From an uncultured Thermoleophilia bacterium (GTDB lineage: Bacteria > Actinomycetota > Thermoleophilia > UBA2241): a stretch of DNA of 64,000 nucleotides. A model generated the notes under the pieces. It was not told the origin of the DNA, searched no databases, and was given only the letters and a program-made list of their open reading frames with translations. The stretch lies in NCBI GenBank assembly GCA_963702475.1, contig CAVPCT010000005.1, positions 608,001 through 672,000 on the forward strand, in the 5' to 3' direction. Below are positions 3,489-20,920 of this stretch, piece after piece. Within the stretch, counting starts at the first letter, position 1; every line of letters begins with the position of its first letter. The position numbers were made by a program, and so were the translations under genes.

Positions 3489-4763
3489 TCACTGCCGGCC
3501 CGCCCCCTCTGCCGCCGCGGCCTGCCGCGCCTCCTCCATCGCCACGCGCCCGGCTGAGCGCTGCCGCACCGGGTCCAGGCGCAGGGTGACGATAGCCGCC
3601 GCGAACGCGAACCCGCAGCCGATGAAGAACGGCACCTGGTAGCCGACGTAGTTGAGGACCATGCCCGCGGCCACCGGCACGACGATGGCGGTGGCGTGCA
3701 GCAGGGTGACGCCCATGGCCAGGCTCGGAGCGATGTCCGCAGGCACGGCGATCTTGCGCAGGTACGTGGCCGCGCCGATGGCCGAGAACGGCGCGATGAA
3801 GCTGTAGATCACGTAGAAGACGCAGGCGAGCCACACGTTGCCCATGAGCGCGTACCCGGCGAGCGCGACGATGTAGGCCACGTTGATGGCCGACAGCGTG
3901 GAGCGCTCGCCGTGGCGATCGATCATGCGCCCGGCCCACGGCGAGAACAGCATCGCCACCACGGTCGAGATGATGACCACCAGCGACACGGCCGAGACCC
4001 CCATGCCGAAGCGGCTCACCAGCACCCACAGGCCGAACGAGAAGAAGAGCTGCTGGCGGGCGCCGTCGAGCACGTTGAGCACGTAGTAGTACCGGTAGTC
4101 GCGTCGCACCACGATCCGCTGGCGCGGCAGCTGGGCCGCGATGAGCTTGCCCTCGTGCAGGTGCGGAAAGCCGACGATGGCGACCGCACCGAGCAGCGCG
4201 ATGACGCCGCACGCCACGTACACCTCGTGGTAGAGGTCGGGCCACTGCAGGAAGAGGAGCAGCACGACGGCGGTGCCCACGAGCGCCCCCGCCTGCGCGA
4301 TGCCTGCCATGGTGCCCAGGATGCGGCCACTGTGCGCCTCCTCCGAGAGACTCATGCCCAGCGCGACCTGCGTCTGCAGGACGGTGTGGAACCCGAGGCT
4401 CCCCAGCACCACCCAGGGGAGGACGGTCGAGAAGCTCGTCGCCAGCGCGTACCCGGCCGTCCCGACGGCGAGCACGACGAGGGCCAGCGCCGTGAGACGC
4501 TGCTGCGACATGCGGTACAGCAGCGCCGTGACGAAGATGAGCAGGAGCCCGGGTATCTCGCGGATCGCCGTGATGTAGCCGAACTGCGGACCGCTGAAGT
4601 GCAGGACGTCGGCGAAGTAGTTGGTGGTGACGGCGCTGCTCGTGTACATCGAGAGGCCGAACGCCAGCGACATGGCAGCCAGCATGAGGTAGCCGCGACC
4701 AGGGGGCGTGCGCCAGGTCGCGGGCAGGCGGCGTCCGTGCTCGATCGCGCGCATTGGGTTCAC
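3489..4763 (-). CDS. MFS transporter
   Basis: 424 aa, about 12 TM segments, AGRMIDRHGER loop motif. Confidence 0.88.
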   Translation of the reverse strand: MNPMRAIEHGRRLPATWRTPPGRGYLMLAAMSLAFGLSMYTSSAVTTNYFADVLHFSGPQFGYITAIREIPGLLLIFVTALLYRMSQQRLTALALVVLAVGTAGYALATSFSTVLPWVVLGSLGFHTVLQTQVALGMSLSEEAHSGRILGTMAGIAQAGALVGTAVVLLLFLQWPDLYHEVYVACGVIALLGAVAIVGFPHLHEGKLIAAQLPRQRIVVRRDYRYYYVLNVLDGARQQLFFSFGLWVLVSRFGMGVSAVSLVVIISTVVAMLFSPWAGRMIDRHGERSTLSAINVAYIVALAGYALMGNVWLACVFYVIYSFIAPFSAIGAATYLRKIAVPADIAPSLAMGVTLLHATAIVVPVAAGMVLNYVGYQVPFFIGCGFAFAAAIVTLRLDPVRQRSAGRVAMEEARQAAAAEGAGRQ

Positions 4764-4783
4764 GTTCCGGGCTCCTTCGCAGA

Positions 4784-4827
4784 CGCGAAAGGGGCGGCGG
4801 CCCTGCCGGGCCGCCGCCCCTTTCGCG
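4784..4827. terminator. Perfect 20-bp-stem hairpin just after sdhB
   Basis: cgcgaaaggggcggcggccc-TGCC-gggccgccgcccctttcgcg immediately 3' of the sdhB stop. Confidence 0.75.
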
Positions 4828-4830
4828 GCC

Positions 4831-5557
4831 TCACTTCGTCTTGCCGAACAGCCTCCGGCGCACGGCCGCCATCTTGAGCCACTGGATGCCCTCCGTCGGG
4901 TTCAGCTCCTTCGGGCAGGCCTCCACGCAGTTGGTGATCGTGTGGCAGCGGTAGGCGCCACGCTCGTTGTCCCACATCGGCATGCGATCCTTGACGGCCT
5001 CGTCGCGCGAGTCCACCTCGAAGCGGTACGCCTTGAGCAACGCGGCCGGGCCCAGGTAGTTGTCCTCGGTCCACACCGACGGGCAGCTGCTGTAGCAGGC
5101 CCCGCACAGGATGCAGTCGATCGGCATGTTCATCTTGAGCCGGTCCTTGGGCGACTGCAGGATCTCGCGCTCGGGCTCCTTGCGAGTGGCGGATGAGCCA
5201 CGGCTTGACGTACTCGTACTTGGCGAAGAAGTCGGTCATGTCGCAGACCAGGTCCTTCACCAGCGGCAGGTGCGGCAGCGGCTCCACGGTGATCACGTCG
5301 GCGTGCACGTGCAGCACGTTGGTCTGGCAGGCCAGGCGGTAGCGCCCGTTGATGTACATGGCGCACGAGCCGCACACGGCGGCGCGGCAGCAGTAGCGGA
5401 ACGAGAGCGTGCCGTCGAGGTGCTCCTGGATGTGGAAGAGCGACTCCAGCACGGTGATGTGCGACTCGTACGGCACCACGAAGTCGTCGTACCGCGCGAC
5501 CTTGGGGTCGTCCTTGGCGGGGTCGAAGCGCTTGATATGCAGTTTGACCTCGGGCAT
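4831..5557 (-). CDS. sdhB: Succinate dehydrogenase/fumarate reductase Fe-S subunit (frameshift near 5185)
   Basis: SFRYCCRAAVCGSCAMYING...LAC in one frame; CILCGACYSSCP and CHTITNCVEACP in the next; ATG overlaps the sdhA stop. Confidence 0.92.
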
Positions 5558-8536: not shown

Positions 8537-10249
8537 CTAGAGCAGGTACGAGTACTTGCGCAGTTCCGCGGACAACGCCTCGCTGGCGGCGGCCATTTCG
8601 GACTCGCCTACGGCAGCCTCGAGAGCTGCGACCAAGCCCGCTATCCGAGATGCCTGCGCGTCATCGAGAAACGGCATCACCTTCTGCCGCGCCTGCTGGA
8701 GAAGGAGCAGCACCTGCGGATCGCGAGTCGTGCTTGAAACCTCGGTACGCTGGACTTCTTGACTCTCGATGGTCTGATCAACGCGCTGGGCTATTTCCAC
8801 CAACTGCCGCTTGTCCTGGGTAACGCCGGTCGTGACTTCTTCTTGGAGTATCACCTGGCGCGTGACGTTGTCGATGAGCGTTACGTAGACGATGCCGTCC
8901 ATCTTGTACTCGTAGGTCAGGTCAAGCGACGCCTCGCCGCGAGGACGAGGAGTAATCGGAACGTTCCAGCTGCACAGCTCGATGATGTCGGGGTCGTCCA
9001 GCCCGGCAACCGGGTCGCCTTCGAGGATGTCGACCTTCACAACCTCCTGAAGATCGACCGCCGGTACGTACGTCTCGGTGCGCTTGGCGGGCAACTTGTG
9101 ATTGCGGGGGATGATCTCGCTGAATTCGAGGGTGCCCGGCACCCGGCCAATGACGGTCGTTCCTAGAGCATGCTCGGTGGACACAAGGAAGTCCGCGGAT
9201 TCAAGTTCCCCGCTCATGATGGCCGCCGCAATCGCAGCACCTTCGGCAATCGCCGTCATGGGATCGATGTTGGGAGCAGGGTCCATGTTGAGCAACTCAC
9301 AGATGAACTGGCGAACCGCTGGAATCTTGCACGTCCCACCGACGAGCAGGAGGGTATCGACGTCCGACGCCTGACGCTTGCCGTCGGCAAGGGTGCGTTC
9401 GATGGGGCCGCGCACTCTGTCAACGAGAGCCCGCGTCTCTTCGTCGAAGATCCGTCGCGTCACGTGCCGGTACTCTCCCCCAGGCATCGCCACGTTCGTT
9501 TCTTCAGCAGCGGAGAGCTTGATCTTAGCCTTCTCACACTCGATCTTCAGCGCACCCACATCGACGGGCGACCACGACTCAACGCCCGAAGATGCCGCGC
9601 GGAGCTTGTTGAACAGGATCCGGTCGAAGTCCAGCCCGCCGCATTCGATGACGCCGCTCGACGACTGCTCATGGAAGACCTGGTCCATCGACTCGAGAAG
9701 AGTGACATCCAGGGTCCCCCCGCCCCAGTCAACCACGAGTACGGTCTTGTCGCCCGGGGTCTCGTAGCCATGCGCCATGGCGGCTGCCGTCGGTTCGTTG
9801 ATGAGCGTCAGCACCTGGATCCCACCCATGCCTGCGCAGATCTTCGTCCGGGCACGCGCGAGGCCACGACTGTTCGCGGGGACGGTGATGACCGCCTGCG
9901 CGACCTCAGATCCGCCCCACATCGTCGGCGCTGTTCGGAGGTGGCCGAAGATGAGCGCCGCCACCTCTTCCACGAGGTAGGCCTGGCCGCCCACCTCGAC
10001 GACCTCTTCACCCTTGAACAGCCGTTTGATCGCCTCGATCTTGTTGTCGTGCCGCATCTTGGCCGCGAAGCCGAAAAGGGGCTCATTGTCCCGACCCACC
10101 GCGAACACCGTAGGCATGATGTTCTGATAGCCGAAAGTCTCCCACTCTCCTGAGGGCGGCTGATCGATCTGCAGGACGCTGACGTCACCGGCGGCGAACT
10201 GGGCCACCACCGAGTTGGTCGTGCCGAAATCGATTCCAAAGGAACTCAT
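8537..10249 (-). CDS. Hsp70-family protein, divergent (not canonical DnaK)
   Basis: GIDFGTTNS, INEPTAAA, VVDWGGGTLDVT, LLVGGTCKIP; SBD-beta-like segment IIPRNHKLPAKRTETY...VKVDILEG; 570 aa. Confidence 0.93.
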   Translation of the reverse strand: MSSFGIDFGTTNSVVAQFAAGDVSVLQIDQPPSGEWETFGYQNIMPTVFAVGRDNEPLFGFAAKMRHDNKIEAIKRLFKGEEVVEVGGQAYLVEEVAALIFGHLRTAPTMWGGSEVAQAVITVPANSRGLARARTKICAGMGGIQVLTLINEPTAAAMAHGYETPGDKTVLVVDWGGGTLDVTLLESMDQVFHEQSSSGVIECGGLDFDRILFNKLRAASSGVESWSPVDVGALKIECEKAKIKLSAAEETNVAMPGGEYRHVTRRIFDEETRALVDRVRGPIERTLADGKRQASDVDTLLLVGGTCKIPAVRQFICELLNMDPAPNIDPMTAIAEGAAIAAAIMSGELESADFLVSTEHALGTTVIGRVPGTLEFSEIIPRNHKLPAKRTETYVPAVDLQEVVKVDILEGDPVAGLDDPDIIELCSWNVPITPRPRGEASLDLTYEYKMDGIVYVTLIDNVTRQVILQEEVTTGVTQDKRQLVEIAQRVDQTIESQEVQRTEVSSTTRDPQVLLLLQQARQKVMPFLDDAQASRIAGLVAALEAAVGESEMAAASEALSAELRKYSYLL

Positions 10250-10828
10250 GTCACCTCCTCCTCGACCGGAGCCTCGGCGTCGCTGGACTCGTCGACTCCC
10301 TCTTGCCCGGGTGTCGCAGACGGCGCTGCTCGCTGAGGCGACTGCCGAGCCTCGTCCGGGTGTGCGTCGCGCGTCTCGGCCACGGCTTCAGACTGCCTTA
10401 CTGCGTTCGAGTCCACGGCTCTCGCCTGCCCCTGCTTGATGACTCGGCTGCTGATGGCGTCGATATACGCCGGGACCAAGATCTCCAGGCGGTCTCCGGT
10501 GCCGTCGACGACTTCGAAGGCCTCGGGCTGCGAAGCATCCTGGAACCTCACCATGCCGGCCTGCTCAATCCACTCCGCCACAAGCCGGCGCAGAGTCTCG
10601 ACGTCCTCAGTCCGCGAGAGCGCCACATCGAGTTGCGCTAGTTGCACAAGGTGCATGGTGAGATCCTGGACGGCCGCGACGACCGTCTTCCGCAGGCCTT
10701 CGAGGCCTCTACGGAACGCGACGTGCCCGGATCCCGACGACCAGTGCGACCTCAACCCTATCGAGCTTCCGGTCGACCGTGTCGAGCAGCCGGATGATCT
10801 CGTCAAGGCGCTCTCTCTCTTTCCTCAT
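10246..10828 (-). CDS. GrpE-like protein (frameshift near 10715-10745)
   Basis: N-terminal coiled coil MRKERERLDEIIRLLDTVDRKLDRVE, helical middle, C-terminal AFEVVDG...EILVPAYIDAISSRVIKQGQARAV resembling the GrpE beta domain; ATGA overlaps on both sides. Confidence 0.55.
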
Positions 10829-11244
10829 TGCGGATCAGCCTTTCCTAGAGGGAACAGCACGGACACATCGATGCGTTCTGCGCTCAAGTGAACGAGAGCA
10901 TCGACCGCTTCGTCGAGCGCTCTCGCGCGGATCTCCTCCAGTTCCTCACTTGTCGGCCTTGCCGTACTCCTTGCCAACGGGACGGCCGGAATCTCAAGCC
11001 CCCCCATCTCGGCAAACAGCGCCCGGTCAGCGGGCACGCGGTAGTGATCGACGGCCGACCCCGGATCGTCAATCGCCTGTTCGATCGCGTGAAGAGCCCA
11101 CGTGACATCTTCGATGCCGTAGAGAGCGTCGGGGTCGCGCTTCACGCGCCTGAGCACTGCCCCGGCTGCCTTCCGCGCGGCGTCGCGCGAGGCCCCGTAG
11201 TCGATGCCAAGAATGAAATAGGGGTTGCGGCGCTCGTCATCCAT
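10825..11244 (-). CDS. J-domain-like protein lacking the HPD motif
   Basis: RNPYFILGIDYGASRDAARKAAGAVLRRVKRDPD matches J-domain helices I-II (PYxxLGv...As...kkA); RDPD at the HPD position. Confidence 0.6.
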   Translation of the reverse strand: MDDERRNPYFILGIDYGASRDAARKAAGAVLRRVKRDPDALYGIEDVTWALHAIEQAIDDPGSAVDHYRVPADRALFAEMGGLEIPAVPLARSTARPTSEELEEIRARALDEAVDALVHLSAERIDVSVLFPLGKADPQ

Positions 11245-11250
11245 CGGCTG

Positions 11251-14093
11251 TCACCTCGAAAGGGCCATGAGCAGGTAGTACAGACGCTCGCTTTCCGATC
11301 GCAGGTCACGCAACGCATCGGCAAGCTCTTCGTCGCCAAGGTGCGGTGTGATTTTGTCGAGAATCTTGCAGGTGTCGGTGCAGAACCGCATGACCGGGTT
11401 CGTCGCCACGAGCACGGCGGCGCGATTCACGCTATACCCGTGGCCGACACTGGCGATCTGCTGCCCGATGCGGTTGTAGAAGCCGAACGCCTCGCGAAGC
11501 TCTGAGTCGCGATACCTGCCTACCACCGCCGCCATCTCGGCGAATCCGATGCTCAGCATGGCCTGCGCGTACTCGCGTTCGTCCGCCGGAAGGGAGGCCA
11601 GTTCGCTCTTGGCGTAGATCAGCATGTCGAGGAACTTGTCTTTGGGTTCCCCTCCGTCCTCAGTGACGCTCTCCGCAACGCCCGCCACCACGAGTCCGAC
11701 CAACGGAATCCTCTCCCCCGCGTCCATCGGCATGTCGGCCTCAATGACGTCGATGCCGAGCATGCGGCCCACGTCTCGGCCGGGGTCTTTGTGAGCCCCG
11801 TCATGAGGGCGCCCACCAATCCATCCCGCTCTTCGATCAACCACCTCGCGTCGGAGTTCCCCCGCAAGGCGGCTGCAAGGGCAACAATGAACGTATCGAT
11901 CCCCTTGGCCCTCGCCCCGTAGACCCTGGCCTCCACCGAACCAGGTGCGGAGACGATGAGGCTGTCGTTCCGACGAAGCCATTCAGCGTCGACGGAGGCC
12001 ATCAATCGCAGGGGGCTGCGGAACGGATCGCAGTCCCACCGGACCGGCCACGCCCACCAGTGCGTGCACCAAATCCTCGGGCATGTCCGCCTCGGGGTCC
12101 GTCGTCGAACTCGCTGGCGCTGAACCCACAGTCACGGCCCGAAGCGACGGCGACCACGCAAAGCTCAGGGGAGGGAGACTCAGCACCAGTCGGGCGAGAT
12201 GGTGAGCCCCGGCAGCGGGGTCCTCACCTCCAGAGACGACACCAATGTTGGCTTGTAGAGCCGACGAGTGCTCGTTGTCGATGGCTTGCTCAAGGGCTTG
12301 AATCGCAGCCTCGTCGCGTCCAACTTGCCACTGTACCGCCGCCATCAAGTTCAGCGCTTCATCCTGGTGGCTTCGGCGCGGGACATCGAAAGACACTGCT
12401 TGGCAAGGGCCAGTGTCTTCTCCCACTCCCACGCGTAGAGGTGGTCTTGCCTCGTAAGCTTGGGGAACTCCAGGAACTCGGGCCCTGCTTCTATCAGAGC
12501 CGGCCTTCGCGTGACAGCGGTCGCACAGCGCGAAGGACGGGAAACGCGTACAGACAAGAGCGCCGGTGTCGCCGGCTCCAAGCTGTCGGCTTGGACGCAG
12601 GCGGCGAGCGCGTTGAGCTTGTCGTGCTGTTCTGGGTTCATGCCGGGGACCGTTACTGGTCGGACTCGGGTCTCAGAGGCCGATGTTGTGCGCGAAAGCC
12701 GGCCGCGTACCAGGACGACTGCAGTTCAAGGTCGGCCGTGACTTCGGGGACGCCCTGCGGCCACGCATGGCGTGTCGCGTGGCGCTTGAAACCATGGTGT
12801 TGAGCACTCTTAGCCGTGCTCGAAAGCCTAGCTTGAAACGTGCGCGTAGCGCCACATGAATGGTGCCGACGACGCCGGGAGAGCCTGGTCAATCAGGTCA
12901 TCAAGCACAGACATCGGCAGAGTAGCAAGGAAGTCGGGAGCCGCCTTGGTGAGGTCCGAGCAACGACCGCCGAATGTCGCGAGAAGCTCGAACGCGGGTC
13001 TGGGACCTCAAGATCATCCGGGAAACGGAGGGGACCCTGTGATGCCGATCTCGCCATCTCCGACGCTGCCAACCTGGCACTGGTAGCCTGCGGAGTGAGG
13101 CTAGACCGCGGTCAATGAAACGAGCAGCGCCACGAGCGGCCAGGTGCGTGACGAGTCGCGCGGCCAAGTCAGTGGCCCAAGGAGAACGTGCTGGACTAGG
13201 GCCACGGCCGGGTTGGCTTCGCAGCACCCTCCAGCGCCTCTGCCACTCGCTGCGCAGCGCTCGTTTCGACAGAGTGGTCCAGCAACGCAGCACCACCACA
13301 AGCTTGACCGGATACCCGGAGGGGAGCATCGTCATGACGATGAGCGCTGCCTCCCGTGGCACTGGAGCGTGCAGCAATGACGCGTACCAATGCGCGCGGA
13401 GTCACTCAGCGGGATCTGCGCGAGGAGATCCTCACGGGAGCACCGAAGCACGTCCGCGACCGTGAGACGGAACTGGCCGTGGCCTGGTTGATCTCAGAGC
13501 GCTACGGAGGCGCTCGCGGTCAGTCTGCACCTTCGATCACACGCCGTGAACGAGCGACCATGCCCGCGTGCCGCTGCGGCCTCGTGCGAGGGCCTCGACG
13601 ATCGTGAGGACGTTCCACCTCGACGCCTCGACTACGTGGAGCGTGAGCGTCGTCGTTGTGGCAACAACGATGGCGGCTTCTTGGTGAACCCTCTTCGGAC
13701 TTGATAGACACTCCCTAGCTGCCCTCGAGGCTGGGACCTGGGGAGAGAGAGCGTGGCCCTGCACTCGGTGCACACTGCGCCGACGGACGGCCAAGCACCG
13801 CAAGACCAGCAGAAGGGAGGCAACGGCAGGTCAATGGCGGAAGTCGCATCCGGCACACCGACCGCGCTGGGCAACTTGGCCGTTGAGGGCGCAGAAGACT
13901 CTCTCGTCGGGACTTGCGCAACCACCCACTCGCGCAAACCCTCATAGGCCCACTTCAGGTGCCCCTGTGCGTCATAGTCGATGACGTGCGTCGGCGATAT
14001 AGGTCCGTGACCCTCAAGGAAGTACTGCCGGTTCTCGTAGCGAATGGTCTTGCCGACCCACGCGGTACTGGGTCCGAACGTCGCGAGAAGCAT
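11251..14093 (-). CDS. Large (about 945 aa) Zn-ribbon plus TPR-containing protein, rebuilt across many frameshifts
   Basis: ATG 14093 behind GGAGGGG; CWSC...CTEC near 13.8 kb; TPR-like QDEALNLMAAVQWQVGRDEAAIQALEQAI near 12280-12367; helical C-terminus ends 6 nt before the J-like gene; could be more than one gene. Confidence 0.5.
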
Positions 14094-14339: not shown

Positions 14340-15909
14340 GGAGCAGCGCTCGCCGTGCACGTCGAACTTCTGGCCGTCGTCCTGGAGCAGGCCGGAGAGC
14401 TGCTCCCACTTCTTGTCGCAGCCGGAGAAGCCCACCTTGTCGGCGAGCTCTCGTGATGGGTCCGCGTGACATCTCGTACGCAGTTCCTGGATGGTCTGCG
14501 CCGCCGAGGCCTGGTCGACGACCTGCTCCTCGAGCTCCTCGAGCTCCTCGTCGGGCAGCTCGTCGAGGTCTTCGAGGTCCTCGATGTCGAGCTCGGGGGC
14601 GACGGCGCCGGTGGCGAGCAGCACGTCGGCCTGCTCGGCCGTCACCTGGGCGCCGCGGCGCAGCAGCTTCTCCTCCTCGAGCTTGGCCTCGAGGCGCTTG
14701 CGGCGGCGCTTCAGCGACTGGTAGATCGCCTCGGGCGAGGAGGCGAGGCGGCGCTGCAGGGTGGTGAGCGCGAAGCCGACGGCGATGCGCCGGCGCCCCT
14801 GGCCCTGCTCGTTGGCGAGCCGGTCGGCGCGGTTCATCTCCTCGCGCACGTAGGTCGGTGAACTCGTTGTAGAGGTACGCCTCGTCGGCGGAAAGCGCGT
14901 ACTTGACGGCGTAGGCGCGGCGCTCGGGGAACAGCGGCCGCCCGTCAATGTGGCGCAGCTGCTCCTTGGAGAGGCGGCGCATCATGTCGCGGGCGCCGGC
15001 CTCCTTGCTGTGCCCCTCTTGCCGCGCACCTTGCCGGCGAAGCGGTCGTAGTCGAGCAGCGCCATGAAGAGGTCGAAGTCCTCGGGCTTGCCGCTGTGCG
15101 GCGTCGCTGTCATCAGCAGCAAGTGGCGCGTCACCTCGCCGAGGCGCATGCCGAGCTTGTAGCGCTTGGTCTCCTTGACCTCGTTGCCGAAGTAGTGCGC
15201 CGACATCTTGTGGGCCTCGTCGCAGATCACGAGGTCCCAGTCGCTCTGGCTGAGCTTGGCGAGCAGCTCCTCGTTACGCGAGAGGTGGTCGAGGCGGGCG
15301 ATGAGCAGGTCCTTCTCGAGGAAGGGGTTGCCGGCGTACGAGGCGTCGATCATCTGCCGCGTGACGATCTCGAAGGGGAGGTGGAACTTCTCGCGCAGCT
15401 CGTCCTGCCACTGGTCGACCAGCATGCCCGGGCAGACGATGAGGCACGCGCTTGGCGTCGCCGCGCACCATGAGCTCCTTGATGAGCAGGCCGGCCATGA
15501 TGGTCTTGCCGGCGCCGGGGTCGTCGGCGAGCAGGAAGTGCAGTGGCTGGCGGGAGAGCATCTCCTCGTAGACCGCCGAGATCTGGTGCGGCAGCGGCAT
15601 CACGTTGGAGGTGCTGACCGCGAGCAGCGGGTCAAAGAGGTAGGCGAGCTGGATGCGGCGCGCCTCGCTGACGAGGCGGAAGAGCGCGCCGTCGGCGGTG
15701 AGGGACCAGGCCTTGCCGGGCAGCCTCGACCTCAAACCGCGACTCGGCGTCCCGGTAGAGGACCTCCTCGCCGACGCGGCCCGCGTCATCGCGGTAGGTG
15801 AGCGTAAGCGCGGCGGTGCCGTGCCACTGCCGGCGACGACGGTCACCGCCTGGCCCGCGACCACCCCGGTCACGCGCGCGCCAGGCGTGAGGTCCTCGAG
15901 ACGTGCCAT
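14340..15909 (-). pseudogene. SNF2-family helicase (defence-island type, usually DUF3883-bearing), truncated before the C-terminal helicase domain
   Basis: [21 protein letters not shown] (Walker A), [37 protein letters not shown]; similarity stops at DVHGER; several frameshifts. Confidence 0.8.
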
Positions 15910-16129
15910 GCGGAGAGGCCCCTCTCGTCAGCTCGTCAGAATGCCGGGCTCGGCTCCCCTCAGGCCCGGCGAGCTCAGACCGAACACACCTGCCGGGACT
16001 CTAGCAGTTGAGGGTGACGGATGGCAGGGCCGACTCAAGTCTCAACCCGGAGCCGTGCGGCCGTTTACATTGCGTCGGCAGCTCTGGACGACAGCGCCGG
16101 CCGGGGCAGCCACAATGCGTCCAATGCCC

Positions 16130-17605
16130 ATGGACGTGCTGCTCGACACGAACATCCTGATCCCGGCGGAGCCAACCTCGCCGAGTGACATCGGAGCCGA
16201 CGACACCCTGTGGTGGCGGAGCTCTTGCGCCTCATAGGAGACCGGGGGCAAGGTGCTGATCCACCCGGATGCCTTTCGGGAGAGTCGAGCACGATACCGA
16301 CCCTGGGCGGCGCGAGCTACGACGCGCATTTCTCGCGAAGTATCCACGGCTCACGTCACCTCCTGAGCTTGACGGCACAGCTCGCCGACCGCTTCGGCTC
16401 TCCAAATCCCGGATCGCACGACGCCGTCGACCTACGCCTCCTGGAGGCGCTGAGGGCGCGGTCTCGCCGACATATTGGTCACGGATGACACAGCATTGCG
16501 CCGGCGAGCCAGAGCCATCGACCTCGGGGACTCCGTGCTCACTTCATCAGAGGCGCTGGAACTCATGCGTCGTCTGTACGAACCGCTGGTCATGGCGCCG
16601 CCTGCGATTAGGCATCTCACGTGCGATCAACTCGATGTCGGCCGATCCCATCCTCGACTCACTCAGCCGCGACTACGACGGGTTCGACGACTGGCTCGCC
16701 AGAGCCGCGCTCATGCGCCGTGATGCGTGGGTGGTCGTCGATGAGAGGCGGCATCTACGCGGGCCTTGGCAATCATCAATGAGGAGATCCAGGGCGAGCA
16801 TGGGCTGCTCGGCAAGCTCCTCAAGATCTGTACGTTCAAAGTGGCTGACGTCCACCGCGGAAGCCGGTACGGAGAGCTCCTCCTGAAGCCGATCCTTGAT
16901 CACGCCTTCGCGCACGGCTACGACACGGTGTTTGTCGAAGCGAAGCCAGACAACGAAGAGTTGTTTTCCTTCCTCGACACCTTCGGCTTCCATGACACGC
17001 GGCCGATTCAAGAACGGCACTGACCCCGTGTTCGCAAAGACGCTCCGCGTCCCCGATGACGGGGCATCTGGTCTGAACGACCTCGAGTTTCACATCGCAT
17101 TCGGTCCGCCGACGCTCAGATGGGTCGGCGTGCCCGCGTTCATCGTCCCGATCCAACCTCGGTTTCACAGCCGCCTCTTCCCCGAGGCGGAACGCCAGCT
17201 CACGCTGTCGCCTGCTGCGGAACCTCACGCAAACGGGATCCGCAAGGCGTACCTGTCGAAAGCTGCGTCGCGCCAACTGACGCCCGGGGTCCGTGTCTGT
17301 ACTTCTACCGGTCTCAGAGCCAGGAGGTGACAGTGGTGGGTGTCGTCGAGGATGTCCATGTTCTGTCCGATGCACCGTCTATCGTCCGTGCAGCAGGAAA
17401 GAGGACGCTGTTCGCATATGAGGACATCGAGAAGCGCTCGCAGCGAAAGGTACCGACGTCCTCGTGATCGGCTTCCGCCAGGCCCGAGTCCTCGACGAAC
17501 CGATCTCATACGGCGAACTCCAGAGAGGTGGCGTTCTCAAGGGTCCGCCGCAGACCGTCACGTCCATCGAATCGGAGGCAGCGGCATGGCTGGCGCAAGA
17601 GCGCA
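16130..17605 (+). CDS. PIN domain-GNAT acetyltransferase-(EVE/PUA-like) fusion, frameshifted
   Basis: VLLDTNILI...D..LL...ILVTDD (PIN); DPILDSLSRDYDGFDDWL, KICTFKVADVHRGSRYGELLLK (GNAT); IVPIQPRFHSRLFPE, IRKAYLS...LYFYRS...VGVVEDV, GPPQTVTSI. Confidence 0.8.
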
Positions 17606-18010
17606 CGACTGTAGTCTTGCTCCCCATCAAGCCGCAGTACGCACGCCCGATCATGGACGGCACGAAAGGCGTCGAGTTCCGCAAGACGTCCTTCGCGCGT
17701 AGCCCCACCCACGTACTCGTGTACGCGAGCAGCCCCGTGAAGAGCATGCTCGGCTACTTCGAGGTCGATGACATCGTCGTCGACTCTCGTCGAGGCGCTG
17801 TGGGCCAGATACGCGGACGTCGGCGGCATCACCGAAGACGACTTCCGCGAGTACTACGCCGGCCACGAGCGCGGAGTGGCTCTCGGCGTCGGCCACGTGC
17901 ACGCCTTCGCGGACCCCCTGCCGCTCGCAGCCCTCGGGCTCACCGCCCCGCCGCAGAGCTTCATGTACATCGGCCGCCGCGTGCTGAACGACCTGCAGGA
18001 GGCACCGTGG
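17606..18010 (+). CDS. ASCH domain protein (reads in frame with the upstream gene as given; frameshift near 17785)
   Basis: VLLPIKPQYARPIMDGTKGVEFRK...VLVYASSPVKSMLGYFEV...LW...GGITEDDFREYY...PPQSFMYI. Confidence 0.85.
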
Positions 18011-18639
18011 AGCAACGCGATCACCGCGGCCGAGCTCAAGGCCATCCGCGAGAAGGCCGGTCCTCACGTCGAGGACGCCGACTGGCAGACATCTGAAGAC
18101 CTCAAGCGGAAGTTCGCCGAGGCCCGGACCCGGCGAGACCCGATGTACCTCACGAGGAGCGAGTTCTTCGAGGTCGCCCACTGGAAGCTCATCGGCCAGT
18201 ACGGACGGGCAGCCCGTCACCTCGAGAAGAACACCGCCGCCGCAGATCGAGCGCGTGACGCGCGCACGCCTTCGCCTTCAGCGCGACCCCGACGATCCCG
18301 ACCTCGAGCTGGACGTGCGCCTGCAGATCCTCCGCGTGCTGCCCGGAGTCGGCATGGGCGTCGCCTCGGCCATCCTCGCCCTCTGCTCCCCCGAGAGACT
18401 ACGCGCCCATCGACTTCCGCGTCTGGCGGCAGCTGTTCGGCGAGGACCTGGCGATGTTCGAACTGCGCCGAATACCGCCGCACATGGCGCGCCTCCGCGA
18501 GCTTGTCGCCGAGCTCGGCGACATCGACCCGGAGGGCGGCTGGACGGTGCAGCTGGTCGACTACTACTGCTGGGAGCGGGACAAGGGCGAGGGCGACGTG
18601 ACGCTGCGAGCCGGCCATCGGCGGCGCCGACCCGACTAG
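18007..18639 (+). CDS. HhH-GPD-like DNA glycosylase-fold protein, frameshifted
   Basis: LTRSEFFEVAHWK, HhH motif LRVLPGVGMGVASAILAL followed by YAPIDFRVWRQL, and WTVQLVDYYCW; AGGAGG RBS before GTG 18007. Confidence 0.65.
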
Positions 18640-18782
18640 CCCCCAACGTAAACCACCTCTGCATTGCGTCATCCTGTTCCGCCATGCTCGGCACCCCTAC
18701 GCTGGGCTTGCCCGGCGAAGGCGTCGCGGTGGCGAGTTTCTGACGATACGCCGCACATCGCCGTGAATCACTCTGGACTACC

Positions 18783-18806
18783 GTTGGTTGACATATGTCA
18801 ACCAAC
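18783..18806. promoter_or_regulatory. Perfect 24-bp palindrome over the -35 box; likely TA autoregulatory operator
   Basis: GTTGGTTGACAT|ATGTCAACCAAC; TTGACA (18788) N17 CAGACT, then AAGGAGG RBS. Confidence 0.75.
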
Positions 18807-18829
18807 TGGGCAGACTGGTGAAGGAGGCT

Positions 18830-19117
18830 GTGAGCTTGGCGCGGGGCAGACACCCGAACAAGCATGTCGAGGCCGCTGTCAGGTACGCAGAGAGCAGGAG
18901 CTGGAGAGTCGTGCCGGCAGGAAGAGTGCACACGCGTGGGGAGTGCTCTGCTGTCTCGCACAACAACCCCGACTGCCGTTGCGGCGAGTTCTGCAGGCTG
19001 AGCGTGGCCTCGACGCCTCGAAGCCCCGAGAACCACGCGGACATGATCCGGCGACGCGTGGATGATTGTATCGGTCCGGCGGAGCAGGAGGGTGCTTTCG
19101 ACGATGAACGACTATGA
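18830..19117 (+). CDS. HicA-like toxin candidate with a Cys-rich insert
   Basis: RHPNKHVEAAVRYAESRSWRV...H...DCRCGEFC.LSV.STPRSPENHA; recognised small-protein family, HicA fold inferred. Confidence 0.6.
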   Translation: MSLARGRHPNKHVEAAVRYAESRSWRVVPAGRVHTRGECSAVSHNNPDCRCGEFCRLSVASTPRSPENHADMIRRRVDDCIGPAEQEGAFDDERL

Positions 19118-19633
19118 GTTCACCCTCCGCTTTGTGCTGGGCCGTCTCCCCGAGACGGACATGGACCTCAGTCGTCGATGCGCTCTACGGGCAAGGTTGC
19201 GACGATGCCCTCATGGATCGGCCGGCCCGGCCGGCTCGGTCTGGACTTCACTCGCAGTGCGGAGTCGGCGCGGGCAGCGGTCCTGAGCGCAATCTCCGAT
19301 GTTCGCAGGGCCGTCCCCGGAGCCGCGCTGGTCGAGGTGACCCCCGACTTGGTCGGCGTAGCGGACCTGGCGTTCATGTTCTCCTGCTCCCGCCAGAACA
19401 TGTGGAAGCTGATCATGGGCAACTGCTCCACAGCTCCTGCCCCCGCCCACGAAGGCAAGTCCTCGCTCTGGCATCTCGGACCACTCCTCCGCTGGCTCGC
19501 ACGCGAGAAGCGGTACTCCGTGGACCCCCGTCTGCTCGACCTGGCCGACGCGACCATGGCCGTCAACCTCGCGCTGGACTCCATCCGCGCGGACCCGGAC
19601 ACCGAACGGGAGCTGCGGAGTCTCGTCGTGTAG
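19104..19633 (+). CDS. HicB-like/AlpA-type HTH DNA-binding antitoxin candidate (frameshifts near 19170-19215)
   Basis: MNDYEFTLRF...DALYGQGCDDAL..IGRPGRLGLDFTRSA...DLVGVADLAFMFSCSRQNMWKL...LWHL. Confidence 0.65.
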
Positions 19634-19812
19634 GGGGTGCTGCCTTTCCACCGGACGTGCACTGATCGCGCGGCCTGGCACACTTGACCCTGTCCGTGAG
19701 TCCGCCGGTCTTGGCCTGTCATCGGCGCGCCGTCTCCCGGCGGCCGGTCCCAGCGCTTTCGGCGCCGCGGCGCGGCAGCTACACTGGCCGCCGGGCCGAA
19801 GTGGAGGACCGG

Positions 19813-20326
19813 ATGCACAAGTCCATCGTCATCGTGGCGGCGCTCGCCGCCGCCCTGCTGCTGGCCGTCGCCTGCGGAAGCGGGAGCGACGGCACGCCGG
19901 CGCCGCAGGCACGGCCGGCGTCGGCGACACCGTGAGCGTCGCCGGAGGCTCCTCCAGCTCGAGATCACGCTCGAGGAGACCAGACGGCTGCCGGCGAGAC
20001 GGTCGGCGGCACGGAGGTCCGGCCGGCCCTGTTCGGGGTCAAGCTCGCCGTCAGGAACCTGACGGGGTCGTTCTACGACGACGCGATCTCACTCTGCGCC
20101 GTGCTCACCGACACGAGCGGCCGCACCCACAACGTCGCGTGGGAGCTCGTCGACGAGAGCGACGAGGAGTTCCGCGACGTGCTCGAGGGCGTCCGCATCC
20201 CGGCGGGCGGCGAGCGGACCGGCTGGGTCTACTTCGCGCTCGCGCCCGAGGCGCGAACCGTCAACGCTGCGCTTCACCGCCGAGGCCGGCTTCGGTCCCG
20301 AGACCGGGGTGTGGTCGCTGGAGTGA
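19813..20326 (+). CDS. DUF4352-like lipoprotein, frameshifted
   Basis: Lipobox LAVAC; FGVKLAVRNL...IPAGGERTGWVYF beta-sandwich pattern. Confidence 0.55.
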
Positions 20327-20340
20327 GACGGGCGCGCCGA

Positions 20341-20676
20341 TCACGGCGCGACGAGCCGTGCCGAACCGCGCGAGCACGGCCGCCGTCAGCTCCGCGGGCA
20401 GCGCGCACGCCAACTCCGCACCGCGCGCCCGCCAGTCCAGGCTCTTCACCTGGTCGGAGAGGACGACGCCGTCGACCGGCAGCGCCTCCGGGACTGCGAC
20501 CTCGAATGGGTATCCCTTCACCCTGCTCGTCAGTGGACAGAGCAGCGCGAGCCCGACCTGCCGTTGTACGCCGCCGGCGAGACGACGAGCCAGGGCCGGC
20601 GGCCTGACTGCTCGTGTCCCGCCACCTCCGGCGTGGCCAGCCAGACGACGTCGCCGCGTTCGGGCACGTACCCCAC
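20341..20676 (-). CDS. mazF: MazF/PemK endoribonuclease toxin (frameshifts)
   Basis: YVPERGDVVWL...GHEQSGRRP.LVVSPAAYN...CPLTSRVKGYPFEV...LSDQVKSLDWRAR. Confidence 0.85.
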
Positions 20677-20677
20677 C

Positions 20678-20920
20678 TCACCAGACCTCGCTGCCGGCCG
20701 CCTGGCCGGCGTCGGTCTCTGCGTGCAGGTTGCCAGGCGTCACGCCTGCCAGCAGGTCCGCCAGCGTCGGTGCCGGGGCGAGGCAGGCTCGAGCCACGAG
20801 CTTGCCGTCGCAGACCCGCAGGTCGACCGCCGAATCCACCACCAGTCCCATCTCCTCCGCAAAGACCTTCGGGATCCTGACCGCGAGGCTGTTGCCCCAG
20901 CGCTGGACCTTGGTTCTCAT
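20678..20920 (-). CDS. mazE: MazE/AbrB-type antitoxin
   Basis: MRTKVQRWGNSLAVRIP...TLADLLAGVTPGNLHAETD...GSEVW. Confidence 0.9.
   Translation of the reverse strand: MRTKVQRWGNSLAVRIPKVFAEEMGLVVDSAVDLRVCDGKLVARACLAPAPTLADLLAGVTPGNLHAETDAGQAAGSEVW

Follow-up and report, generated by a model that had tools for sequence, protein, structure and literature searches.

A catalogued PIN-GNAT-EVE/ASCH candidate and an Ogg2-like helix-hairpin-helix gene lie end to end, without conserved linkage, in a Thermoleophilia genome

Introduction

Operons in which a (PIN)-GNAT-EVE protein is encoded together with an ASCH protein were called uncharacterised by Bell, Wolf and Koonin in 2020, who proposed toxin-antitoxin or defence roles for them, attributed an earlier source to Iyer et al. 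2013, and noted the proximity of the operons to the COG1743-DUF499-SWI2/SNF2 system (PMC7641849). The main text of that paper contains no occurrence of HhH or helix-hairpin-helix. Payne et al. 2024 present 145 untested PDCs, with M11 unnamed in the main text (10.1101/2024.01.29.577857). In the literature searched, the term PDC-M11 occurs in annotation use only, and there is neither a test of PDC-M11 nor a description of the three-gene arrangement reported here (Iyer et al. 2013 and the supplements of Bell et al., which may bear on this, lie outside that scope).

The Dag enzymes are anti-phage HhH glycosylases, of which Dag1 is bifunctional and has an essential lysine, K118 (Getz et al., bioRxiv 10.1101/2025.10.29.685425). 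In the Brig3-BapA system, the ASCH-fold protein BapA, a two-barrel glucosyl hydrolase, serves the glycosylase Brig3, which has a UDG fold, and cooperation between the two has been shown (PMC13160076). The END nucleases carry an iEndoIII/Ogg-like sensor domain and function in modified-DNA defence (PMC12191111).

Here we describe a locus within a stretch of 64,000 nucleotides (hereafter the window) from an uncultured Thermoleophilia bacterium (GCA_963702475.1, contig CAVPCT010000005.1, positions 608,001 to 672,000). The initial annotation of this locus, made from the sequence alone, had proposed that PIN-GNAT-EVE, ASCH and HhH glycosylase-like genes form a single module acting on modified nucleic acids.

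Results

Three overlapping genes interrupted by frameshifts

In a three-frame translation of positions 16090-18720, the PIN, GNAT, ASCH and HhH motifs are all present on the + strand at the claimed site, spread over many frame pieces. The pieces correspond to three co-oriented, overlapping genes, each of which is interrupted by single-base frameshifts. Each gene has intact relatives in the same genus (tblastn, 2.9e-80 for gene 1, 2.5e-42 for gene 2 and 6e-56 for gene 3), and therefore these are not chance frames. The tight co-oriented run of PIN, GNAT, EVE-like, ASCH and HhH regions that was noted initially is confirmed by motifs, Pfam, PADLOC and these intact relatives.

The source assembly (G000; other genomes, loci and proteins are given working labels beginning with G, L and P) consists of 4.3 Mb in 9 contigs and is 93.8% complete. 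Within the same genus, genome G005 carries an intact 491-aa PIN-GNAT-EVE protein (P0002) and an ASCH gene (P0003), with 71% DNA identity over 1209 bases, and the HhH gene is intact in G007 (P0001) and G023 (P0004). As read in the window, the frame of gene 1 continues into the ASCH gene, and that of the ASCH gene continues into the HhH gene. In G005, a separate ASCH start is located within the end of gene 1. At the corresponding point of the alignment, the closest HhH gene (locus L043; 82% nucleotide identity, compared to 74% for G007) begins in a stop/start overlap. Because these relatives have their own starts there, we resolve genes 1, 2 and 3 as separate, and on the alignments both read-throughs are best explained by errors of one base where the genes overlap.

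Genes 1 and 2 correspond to PDC-M11

Gene 1 (16124..17614, + strand, approximately 490 aa, starting at 16124 or 16130) encodes a PIN-GNAT-EVE protein that is frameshifted as assembled. Its PIN motifs are LLDTN at 16139 and VTDD near 16472, its GNAT domain spans 16757-17020 (Pfam Acetyltransf_1, E 3e-5) and includes an RxxRYG motif, and an EVE-like domain occupies the C-terminal part (approximately 17100-17614). The acidic residues equivalent to D8, E53, D102 and D122 of the PIN domain are all found in the window pieces, and among 95 homologs they are retained in 95, 94 (as Glu or Asp), 95 and 94 sequences, respectively. Pfam detects GNAT in 87 of these homologs, EVE in 28 and PIN_3 in 15. The predicted model of gene 1 (pLDDT 92.9) is matched by Foldseek to ZmASCH, which has the PUA/EVE/ASCH fold, and to GNATs; no PIN structure is among the matches listed.

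Gene 2 (17586..18010, + strand, approximately 140 aa) overlaps the end of gene 1 and encodes an ASCH protein, and its DNA aligns with the ASCH region of G005. A K-x-x-E-x-R motif is present in the window (KGVEFR) and in all 27 of the ASCH copies examined. The preceding residue is Ser in most copies and Pro in the window, G005, G585 and G019. The spacing of this motif equals that of the catalytic K21, E24 and R26 in the ac4C deacetylase EOLA1 (10.64898/2026.08.01.741249, in part), and the gene 2 motif thus appears to be of a hydrolase (deacetylase) type.

A PADLOC scan of 11 window pieces from genes 1 and 2 gave matches to PDC-M11A or PDC-M11B for eight, with best E values per piece from the 3.6e-27 range to 1e-7, whereas three N-terminal pieces of 26-35 aa were without a PDC-M11 match. 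The two pieces of gene 2 match PDC-M11B with E values of 2.6e-20 and 8.5e-16. Among the intact proteins of G005, P0002 matches the PDC-M11A profile PDLC04421 at E 9e-157, and P0003 matches PDC-M11B at E 3e-40. Judged by these profiles, genes 1 and 2 are the PADLOC candidate PDC-M11, an already catalogued candidate anti-phage pair, and the link originally drawn to PIN-GNAT-EVE/ASCH operons is upheld. The two genes fit both profiles in the same order and with the same overlap, and the pair adjoins an Hma-type SWI2/SNF2 helicase, a proximity that Bell et al. describe (PMC7641849). The locus differs from those operons in that it has neither an AAA_17 gene nor a second ASCH gene, and the HhH gene comes next.

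No relatives of P0002 were found in viral contigs. One PDC-M11A copy (L110:5115-5594, G280) is cut to the PIN domain and the extreme C-terminus, with the ASCH gene still next to it. QueC-like genes are located near PDC-M11 on two rhizobial plasmids (L093 and L099).

Gene 3 represents a large unnamed family with a predicted glycosylase fold

Gene 3 (18007..18639, + strand, approximately 195 aa) encodes an Ogg2-like HhH glycosylase-fold protein. It has a probable GTG start at 18007 that overlaps the ASCH stop, and its true end is probably near 18600, ahead of the as-read stop at 18639. The HhH motif, LPGVGMGVAS, is located near 18340 and the sequence PIDFRVW near 18405. A word search yielded 74 homologs of P0001, and a 48-sequence profile of the family retrieved 3170 representatives at E ≤ 0.001 and 1247 at E ≤ 1e-10. 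There is no model above cut-off for this family in Pfam, NCBIfam or PADLOC, and in the Atlas it falls in unnamed clusters, for which the nearest named lead is PF21790, OGG-like (score 0.89, 10% of members). Some members are fused to the small domains DUF7225 or DUF6508.

The AlphaFold model of the G007 ortholog P0001 (pLDDT 94.7) predicts an all-helical, two-lobed structure with a helix-hairpin-helix, consistent with the HhH-GPD superfamily fold. By structure alignment (VIA-align), the best match is the Thermotoga Ogg protein Tm1821, with 163 aligned residues, an rmsd of 3.7 and a Z of 10.8, which is below the caution level of about 13 that applies to helical folds in this tool; nearly all of the top 21 rows fall within the HhH-GPD superfamily or fold. 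The next matches are EndoIII, MagIII, OGG1 and Mag1 with Z of about 7. Foldseek returned no match to the HhH model at E ≤ 0.001, with MjOgg ranking first at E 0.02, and single-sequence PDB searches gave nothing significant. The family profile aligns to MjOgg at E 3e-4, which places the catalytic Asp opposite the Asp of the MjOgg sequence AIIDRH. The glycosylase fold that had been suspected for the HhH gene is supported by this model of the ortholog.

The catalytic Asp after the hairpin is present in the window (IDFRVW) and in 93 of 99 family members, which also conserve W63 (91), K64 (93), R71 (93), D186 (75) and W190 (70). At the position of the hairpin Lys, 87 of the 99 carry Pro (47) or Gly (40), and Lys is not among the four commonest residues. 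Gene 3 in the window has Gly there, together with the W-K-L and DxxxW sequences, and the position aligns with a residue that varies (K, Q or S) among Ogg entries. Thus, the hairpin motif and catalytic Asp expected from the initial annotation are present, and the Lys of bifunctional enzymes is absent. With the Asp kept and the hairpin Lys missing, gene 3 is probably glycosylase-like and monofunctional rather than a member of Ogg2. The Ogg2 8-oxoguanine glycosylase/lyases (MjOgg, 3KNT/3FHF; Tm1821, 3N0U) nevertheless provide its best profile and structure matches, with the HhH, the Asp and the C-terminal helix aligned; the differences are an identity of 13-16%, the replacement of the hairpin Lys by Gly or Pro, and a patchy and mobile distribution.

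A degenerate HhH subclade, which lacks DxxxW and has an altered Asp motif, is present in G023 and in six of seven genomes of a sister genus (L115, L116, L118-L121 and L004). HhH alignment revealed no relative in viral contigs, and the queries P0001 and P0081 had no match among plasmids; the more distant query P0200 matched two plasmid records. Weak matches among phages comprise four records, which represent two haloarchaeal pleomorphic viruses. A distant HhH-family match with 29% identity (E 2e-5) is located in pleomorphic viruses 3 and 4 of Haloarcula hispanica (KX344510.1:10957-11448 and KY264020.1:4110-4601). An HhH-profile match at positions 4693-5193 of the window (E 0.009) was rejected as a shadow frame over succinate dehydrogenase.

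Gene 3 and PDC-M11 are not linked in the other loci surveyed

The initial annotation had named in advance a lack of linkage between the HhH gene and PIN-GNAT/ASCH genes elsewhere as an observation that would count against a shared module, and a neighbourhood survey conducted from both sides found no such linkage. From the HhH side, PDC-M11 is present in 0 of 54 loci (0 of 43 plus 0 of 11), a set that is small relative to the 3170 representatives and whose members are not independent, since L010 and L012 are identical and L066-L070 and L050/L052 are near-duplicates. The 43 loci derive from 44 that were searched with P0002 and P0003, of which L014 failed the family profile and was dropped; 32 of them have at least 500 bases upstream, which is enough to show an abutting ASCH gene. 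For the eleven further loci the flanks extend up to 1.5 kb, and many of all the HhH contigs are short. A weak ASCH match in L055 (E 0.042, 43 aa) was rejected because it lies on the opposite strand inside another gene.

From the PDC-M11 side, the gene 3 family is present in 0 of 28 loci (0 of 24 plus 0 of 4). The 24 comprise G005, 16 of 22 plasmid matches and seven genome regions, and the best family-profile E value among them is 0.065, compared to 5e-19 for the window control. Scanning genome contigs with one protein as the query yielded only three loci. Among 53 other genomes of the genus, a close HhH gene occurs in three and a PDC-M11A-like gene in four. The corresponding counts are 13 (HhH family) and eight (PDC-M11A) among 300 other genomes of the class, where G007 and G514 each have both, located on separate contigs, and five and four (PDC-M11) among 400 other genomes of the phylum, where no genome has both.

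Behind the closest PDC-M11 copies lies either an unrelated gene on the opposite strand (G005) or Fic (G585). The closest HhH copies follow other genes through a like overlap, namely a YFGD-motif gene in L043 and a nuclease-like gene in G007, L013, L041 and L044, and thus the gene to which the HhH gene is attached upstream varies while the type of stop/start overlap stays the same. Other glycosylase-like genes lie within approximately 2 kb of PDC-M11 in three of the 28 loci: DUF6308 (L095), UDG (L097) and a fragment without a database match that we take to be HhH-like (L131). None of the three is directly behind the ASCH gene, and the two that were tested by hhalign against the gene 3 family profile gave a probability below 1%. 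In sum, across the loci surveyed gene 3 has no conserved linkage with PDC-M11, and the arrangement in the window is not a new three-part system.

Neighbourhoods of the HhH family

Neighbours of the HhH loci include Nmad3, an EVE-REase, Mrr-IrrE, an OLD nuclease, an integrase/AlpA element and IS21. Many loci instead have housekeeping neighbours such as Mur ligases, UvrA, RuvA and methyltransferases, and a role in repair therefore fits as well as one in defence. A mobile or defence-island context is seen for the window, G007, L013/L044, L050/L052, L061 and L072, against many other loci with ordinary neighbours. The EVE-REase fusion near an HhH gene is located at L050:3029-4123, and another HhH gene is near what is presumably a PUA-like gene (L054:3-365).

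A recurrent gene string (L003:934-3360 in G007; also L013, L041, L044 and L043) consists of a nuclease-like 174-aa gene, the HhH gene, a YFGD-motif gene and a GIY-YIG-like gene. The nuclease-like, YFGD and GIY-YIG-like labels are our own assumptions, as these genes have no Pfam or PADLOC match, and we take the YFGD-motif gene, which lacks a Pfam match, to be methyltransferase-like. Nmad3 is upstream of the string in L013 and L044, the YFGD gene is on opposite sides of the HhH gene in two clades, and protein P0225 fuses the nuclease-like gene to the HhH gene. As a candidate module, this string is stronger than the arrangement in the window.

A low-GC island with other candidate defence genes

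The GC content is 0.63-0.68 over approximately 8-20 kb of the window, compared to approximately 0.70-0.75 in most of the window. Divergent from gene 1 is the truncated N-terminal half of an HmaA-type SNF2 helicase (14346..15909, − strand), which matches only positions 1-512 of the 1176 in PDLC00659. Neither the other half of this gene nor DUF1156 (PF06634) was found in G000 at its completeness of 93.8%. Downstream of gene 3, a PDC-M06A/B pair (18788..19633, + strand; E 7e-28 and 2e-47) represents a separate candidate system, which we presume to be HicAB-like. It is followed, at approximately 20260-20900 on the − strand, by a PemK/MazF-like gene and, upstream of this, a MazE-like frame, which together resemble a MazEF pair.

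A divergent Hsp70 gene set is located at 8537-12641 on the − strand. The Hsp70 protein has 570 aa (Pfam, E 4e-74), and upstream of its gene are co-oriented genes of 186, 139 and 243 aa and then further broken frames. These partner genes have no Pfam or PADLOC match; the 139-aa product is presumably J-domain-like. The set has the look of a conflict cassette built around Hsp70. A search of 15800-19800 revealed no consensus for a promoter or terminator, flanking or att-like repeats were not conspicuous, and there is no tRNA in the window. The best reading of the island is a stack of separately acquired defence cassettes in a variable region of low GC content.

Discussion

We consider it likely that the locus comprises two independent defence cassettes that abut within a variable island of low GC content, namely PDC-M11 and a stand-alone, mobile Ogg2-like glycosylase. 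This reading is based on the PADLOC assignment of genes 1 and 2, the lack of linkage (0 of 54 HhH loci and 0 of 28 PDC-M11 loci), the differing neighbours of the closest copies, the low GC content and other defence genes of the island, and the precedent of the Dag enzymes. Gene 3 is then a separately mobile passenger behind PDC-M11 in the source genome. The proposal that the three genes form one module does not hold, given these counts and the different contigs on which the class genomes with both genes carry them. The general theme of modified-base defence seems, in our analysis, to have been right.

The frameshifts can be attributed to sequencing or to decay. Gene decay is deletion-biased, whereas the frame-changing gaps relative to intact relatives comprise 23 insertions and eight deletions, many of them in short repeats. 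Moreover, there is one new stop in 802 aligned codons, and the change rate at third codon positions (0.31-0.57) exceeds that at second positions (0.13-0.23). Because insertions outnumber deletions, new stops are this rare and third-position changes dominate, we think it quite likely that the frameshifts reflect unpolished long-read error in a strain-variable island. Decay of the island, with real frameshifts and all three genes as pseudogenes, would fit the truncation of the adjoining HmaA helicase and the finding that, with rpoB and gyrA intact in G000, long coding-like frames place the 16-20 kb bin in the lowest percentile among 1073 bins of the genome; on balance we judge it unlikely. One-base insertions are also the dominant error in this region, which bears on the single open frame, as read, from the ASCH gene into the HhH N-terminus. 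A true fusion of a PUA-type sensor with a glycosylase effector could produce such a frame, and the gene 3 family does fuse to other small domains. However, an ASCH stretch is present in 0 of 221 HhH homologs (best E 0.019) and the HhH gene of L043 begins with its own start where the two align, making a fusion very improbable. Among longer proteins there was no ASCH fusion, in a weak test that gave one match (P0225) among 8000 scored candidates.

A rare but real three-gene unit, in which the ASCH (or GNAT) activity turns a phage base modification into a glycosylase substrate, in the manner of BapA acting for Brig3, and PIN-GNAT-EVE is a toxin held in reserve, would explain the start/stop overlap in the window and the hydrolase-type motif kept in the ASCH protein. 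It has a parallel in Brig3-BapA, where a glycosylase gene overlaps an ASCH-fold gene in a defence island, but the double barrel of BapA and the UDG fold of Brig3 are unlike gene 2 and gene 3 (PMC13160076, in part). The glycosylase-like genes near PDC-M11 in three of 28 loci also point towards such a unit, but they belong to different families, and the pair itself is absent from all other loci surveyed, making the unit improbable. A more credible possibility, although we still rate it below the defence role, is that gene 3 is an accessory repair glycosylase for 8-oxoG or an alkylated base, or that it senses DNA lesions with weak catalysis, as the iEndoIII domain does in the END nucleases (PMC12191111, in part), with the nuclease partner absent here. 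The closest solved folds are those of repair enzymes, the hairpin Lys is missing, a degenerate subclade exists, and the fusion P0225 resembles the END arrangement in joining a nuclease-like gene to an Ogg-like domain. Gene 3, however, is stand-alone, keeps the Asp and has no PLD or NucS nuclease attached. Its active-site-like set is also conserved, with the Asp, W63, K64 and R71 each kept in 91-93 of 99 members, and its patchy spread (5 of 400 phylum genomes) and presence in islands and small elements are unlike those of housekeeping glycosylases.

Under the favoured reading of two independent cassettes, the activities that follow are ones we infer. PDC-M11 would be a toxin-antitoxin-like pair. 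During infection, gene 1 would bind modified nucleic acid through its EVE domain, acetylate a target (RNA or a nucleobase) through the fused GNAT and cleave RNA through the PIN domain, so that the cell is arrested. The ASCH protein would remove or sense the acyl mark and restrain the toxin. These details are tentative, and we hold them with somewhat less than even confidence. Gene 3 most plausibly would work like the Dag enzymes. It resembles them as a small stand-alone HhH-superfamily protein that is apparently mobile and, at some loci, near defence genes, and its C-terminal DxxxW is spaced like D184 and W188 of Dag1. In contrast, Dag1 requires K118 whereas the gene 3 family lacks the hairpin Lys (10.1101/2025.10.29.685425, in part). 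In a Dag-like process, gene 3 would flip out and excise a non-canonical guanine from incoming phage DNA, and the abasic sites left behind would go to other nucleases; the case for such excision seems to us evenly balanced. Gene 3 would have been appended behind the ASCH gene through the stop/start overlap, as its relatives have been behind other genes. As a counterpoint to full independence, gene 3 abuts the ASCH gene with an apparent ribosome-binding site inside it, and co-expression of the two is therefore likely in the source genome.

The EOLA1-type spacing in the ASCH protein provides a concrete writer/eraser hypothesis for PDC-M11, a common candidate system. The gene 3 family is large, unnamed and a testable oddity, in that the Asp is kept, the hairpin Lys is lost, and WKL and Arg are conserved, and it may thus join the increasing number of glycosylases in defence. 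It is a long shot that the family constitutes undescribed, widespread Lys-less Ogg2-like anti-phage glycosylases, with the W-K-L/Arg set replacing the hairpin Lys, that are newly coupled here to PDC-M11, such that the ASCH protein deacylates a modified base of the phage and thereby unmasks the glycosylase substrate, and the PIN-GNAT-EVE toxin serves as back-up. If true, this coupling would be an HhH-fold counterpart of BapA-Brig3.
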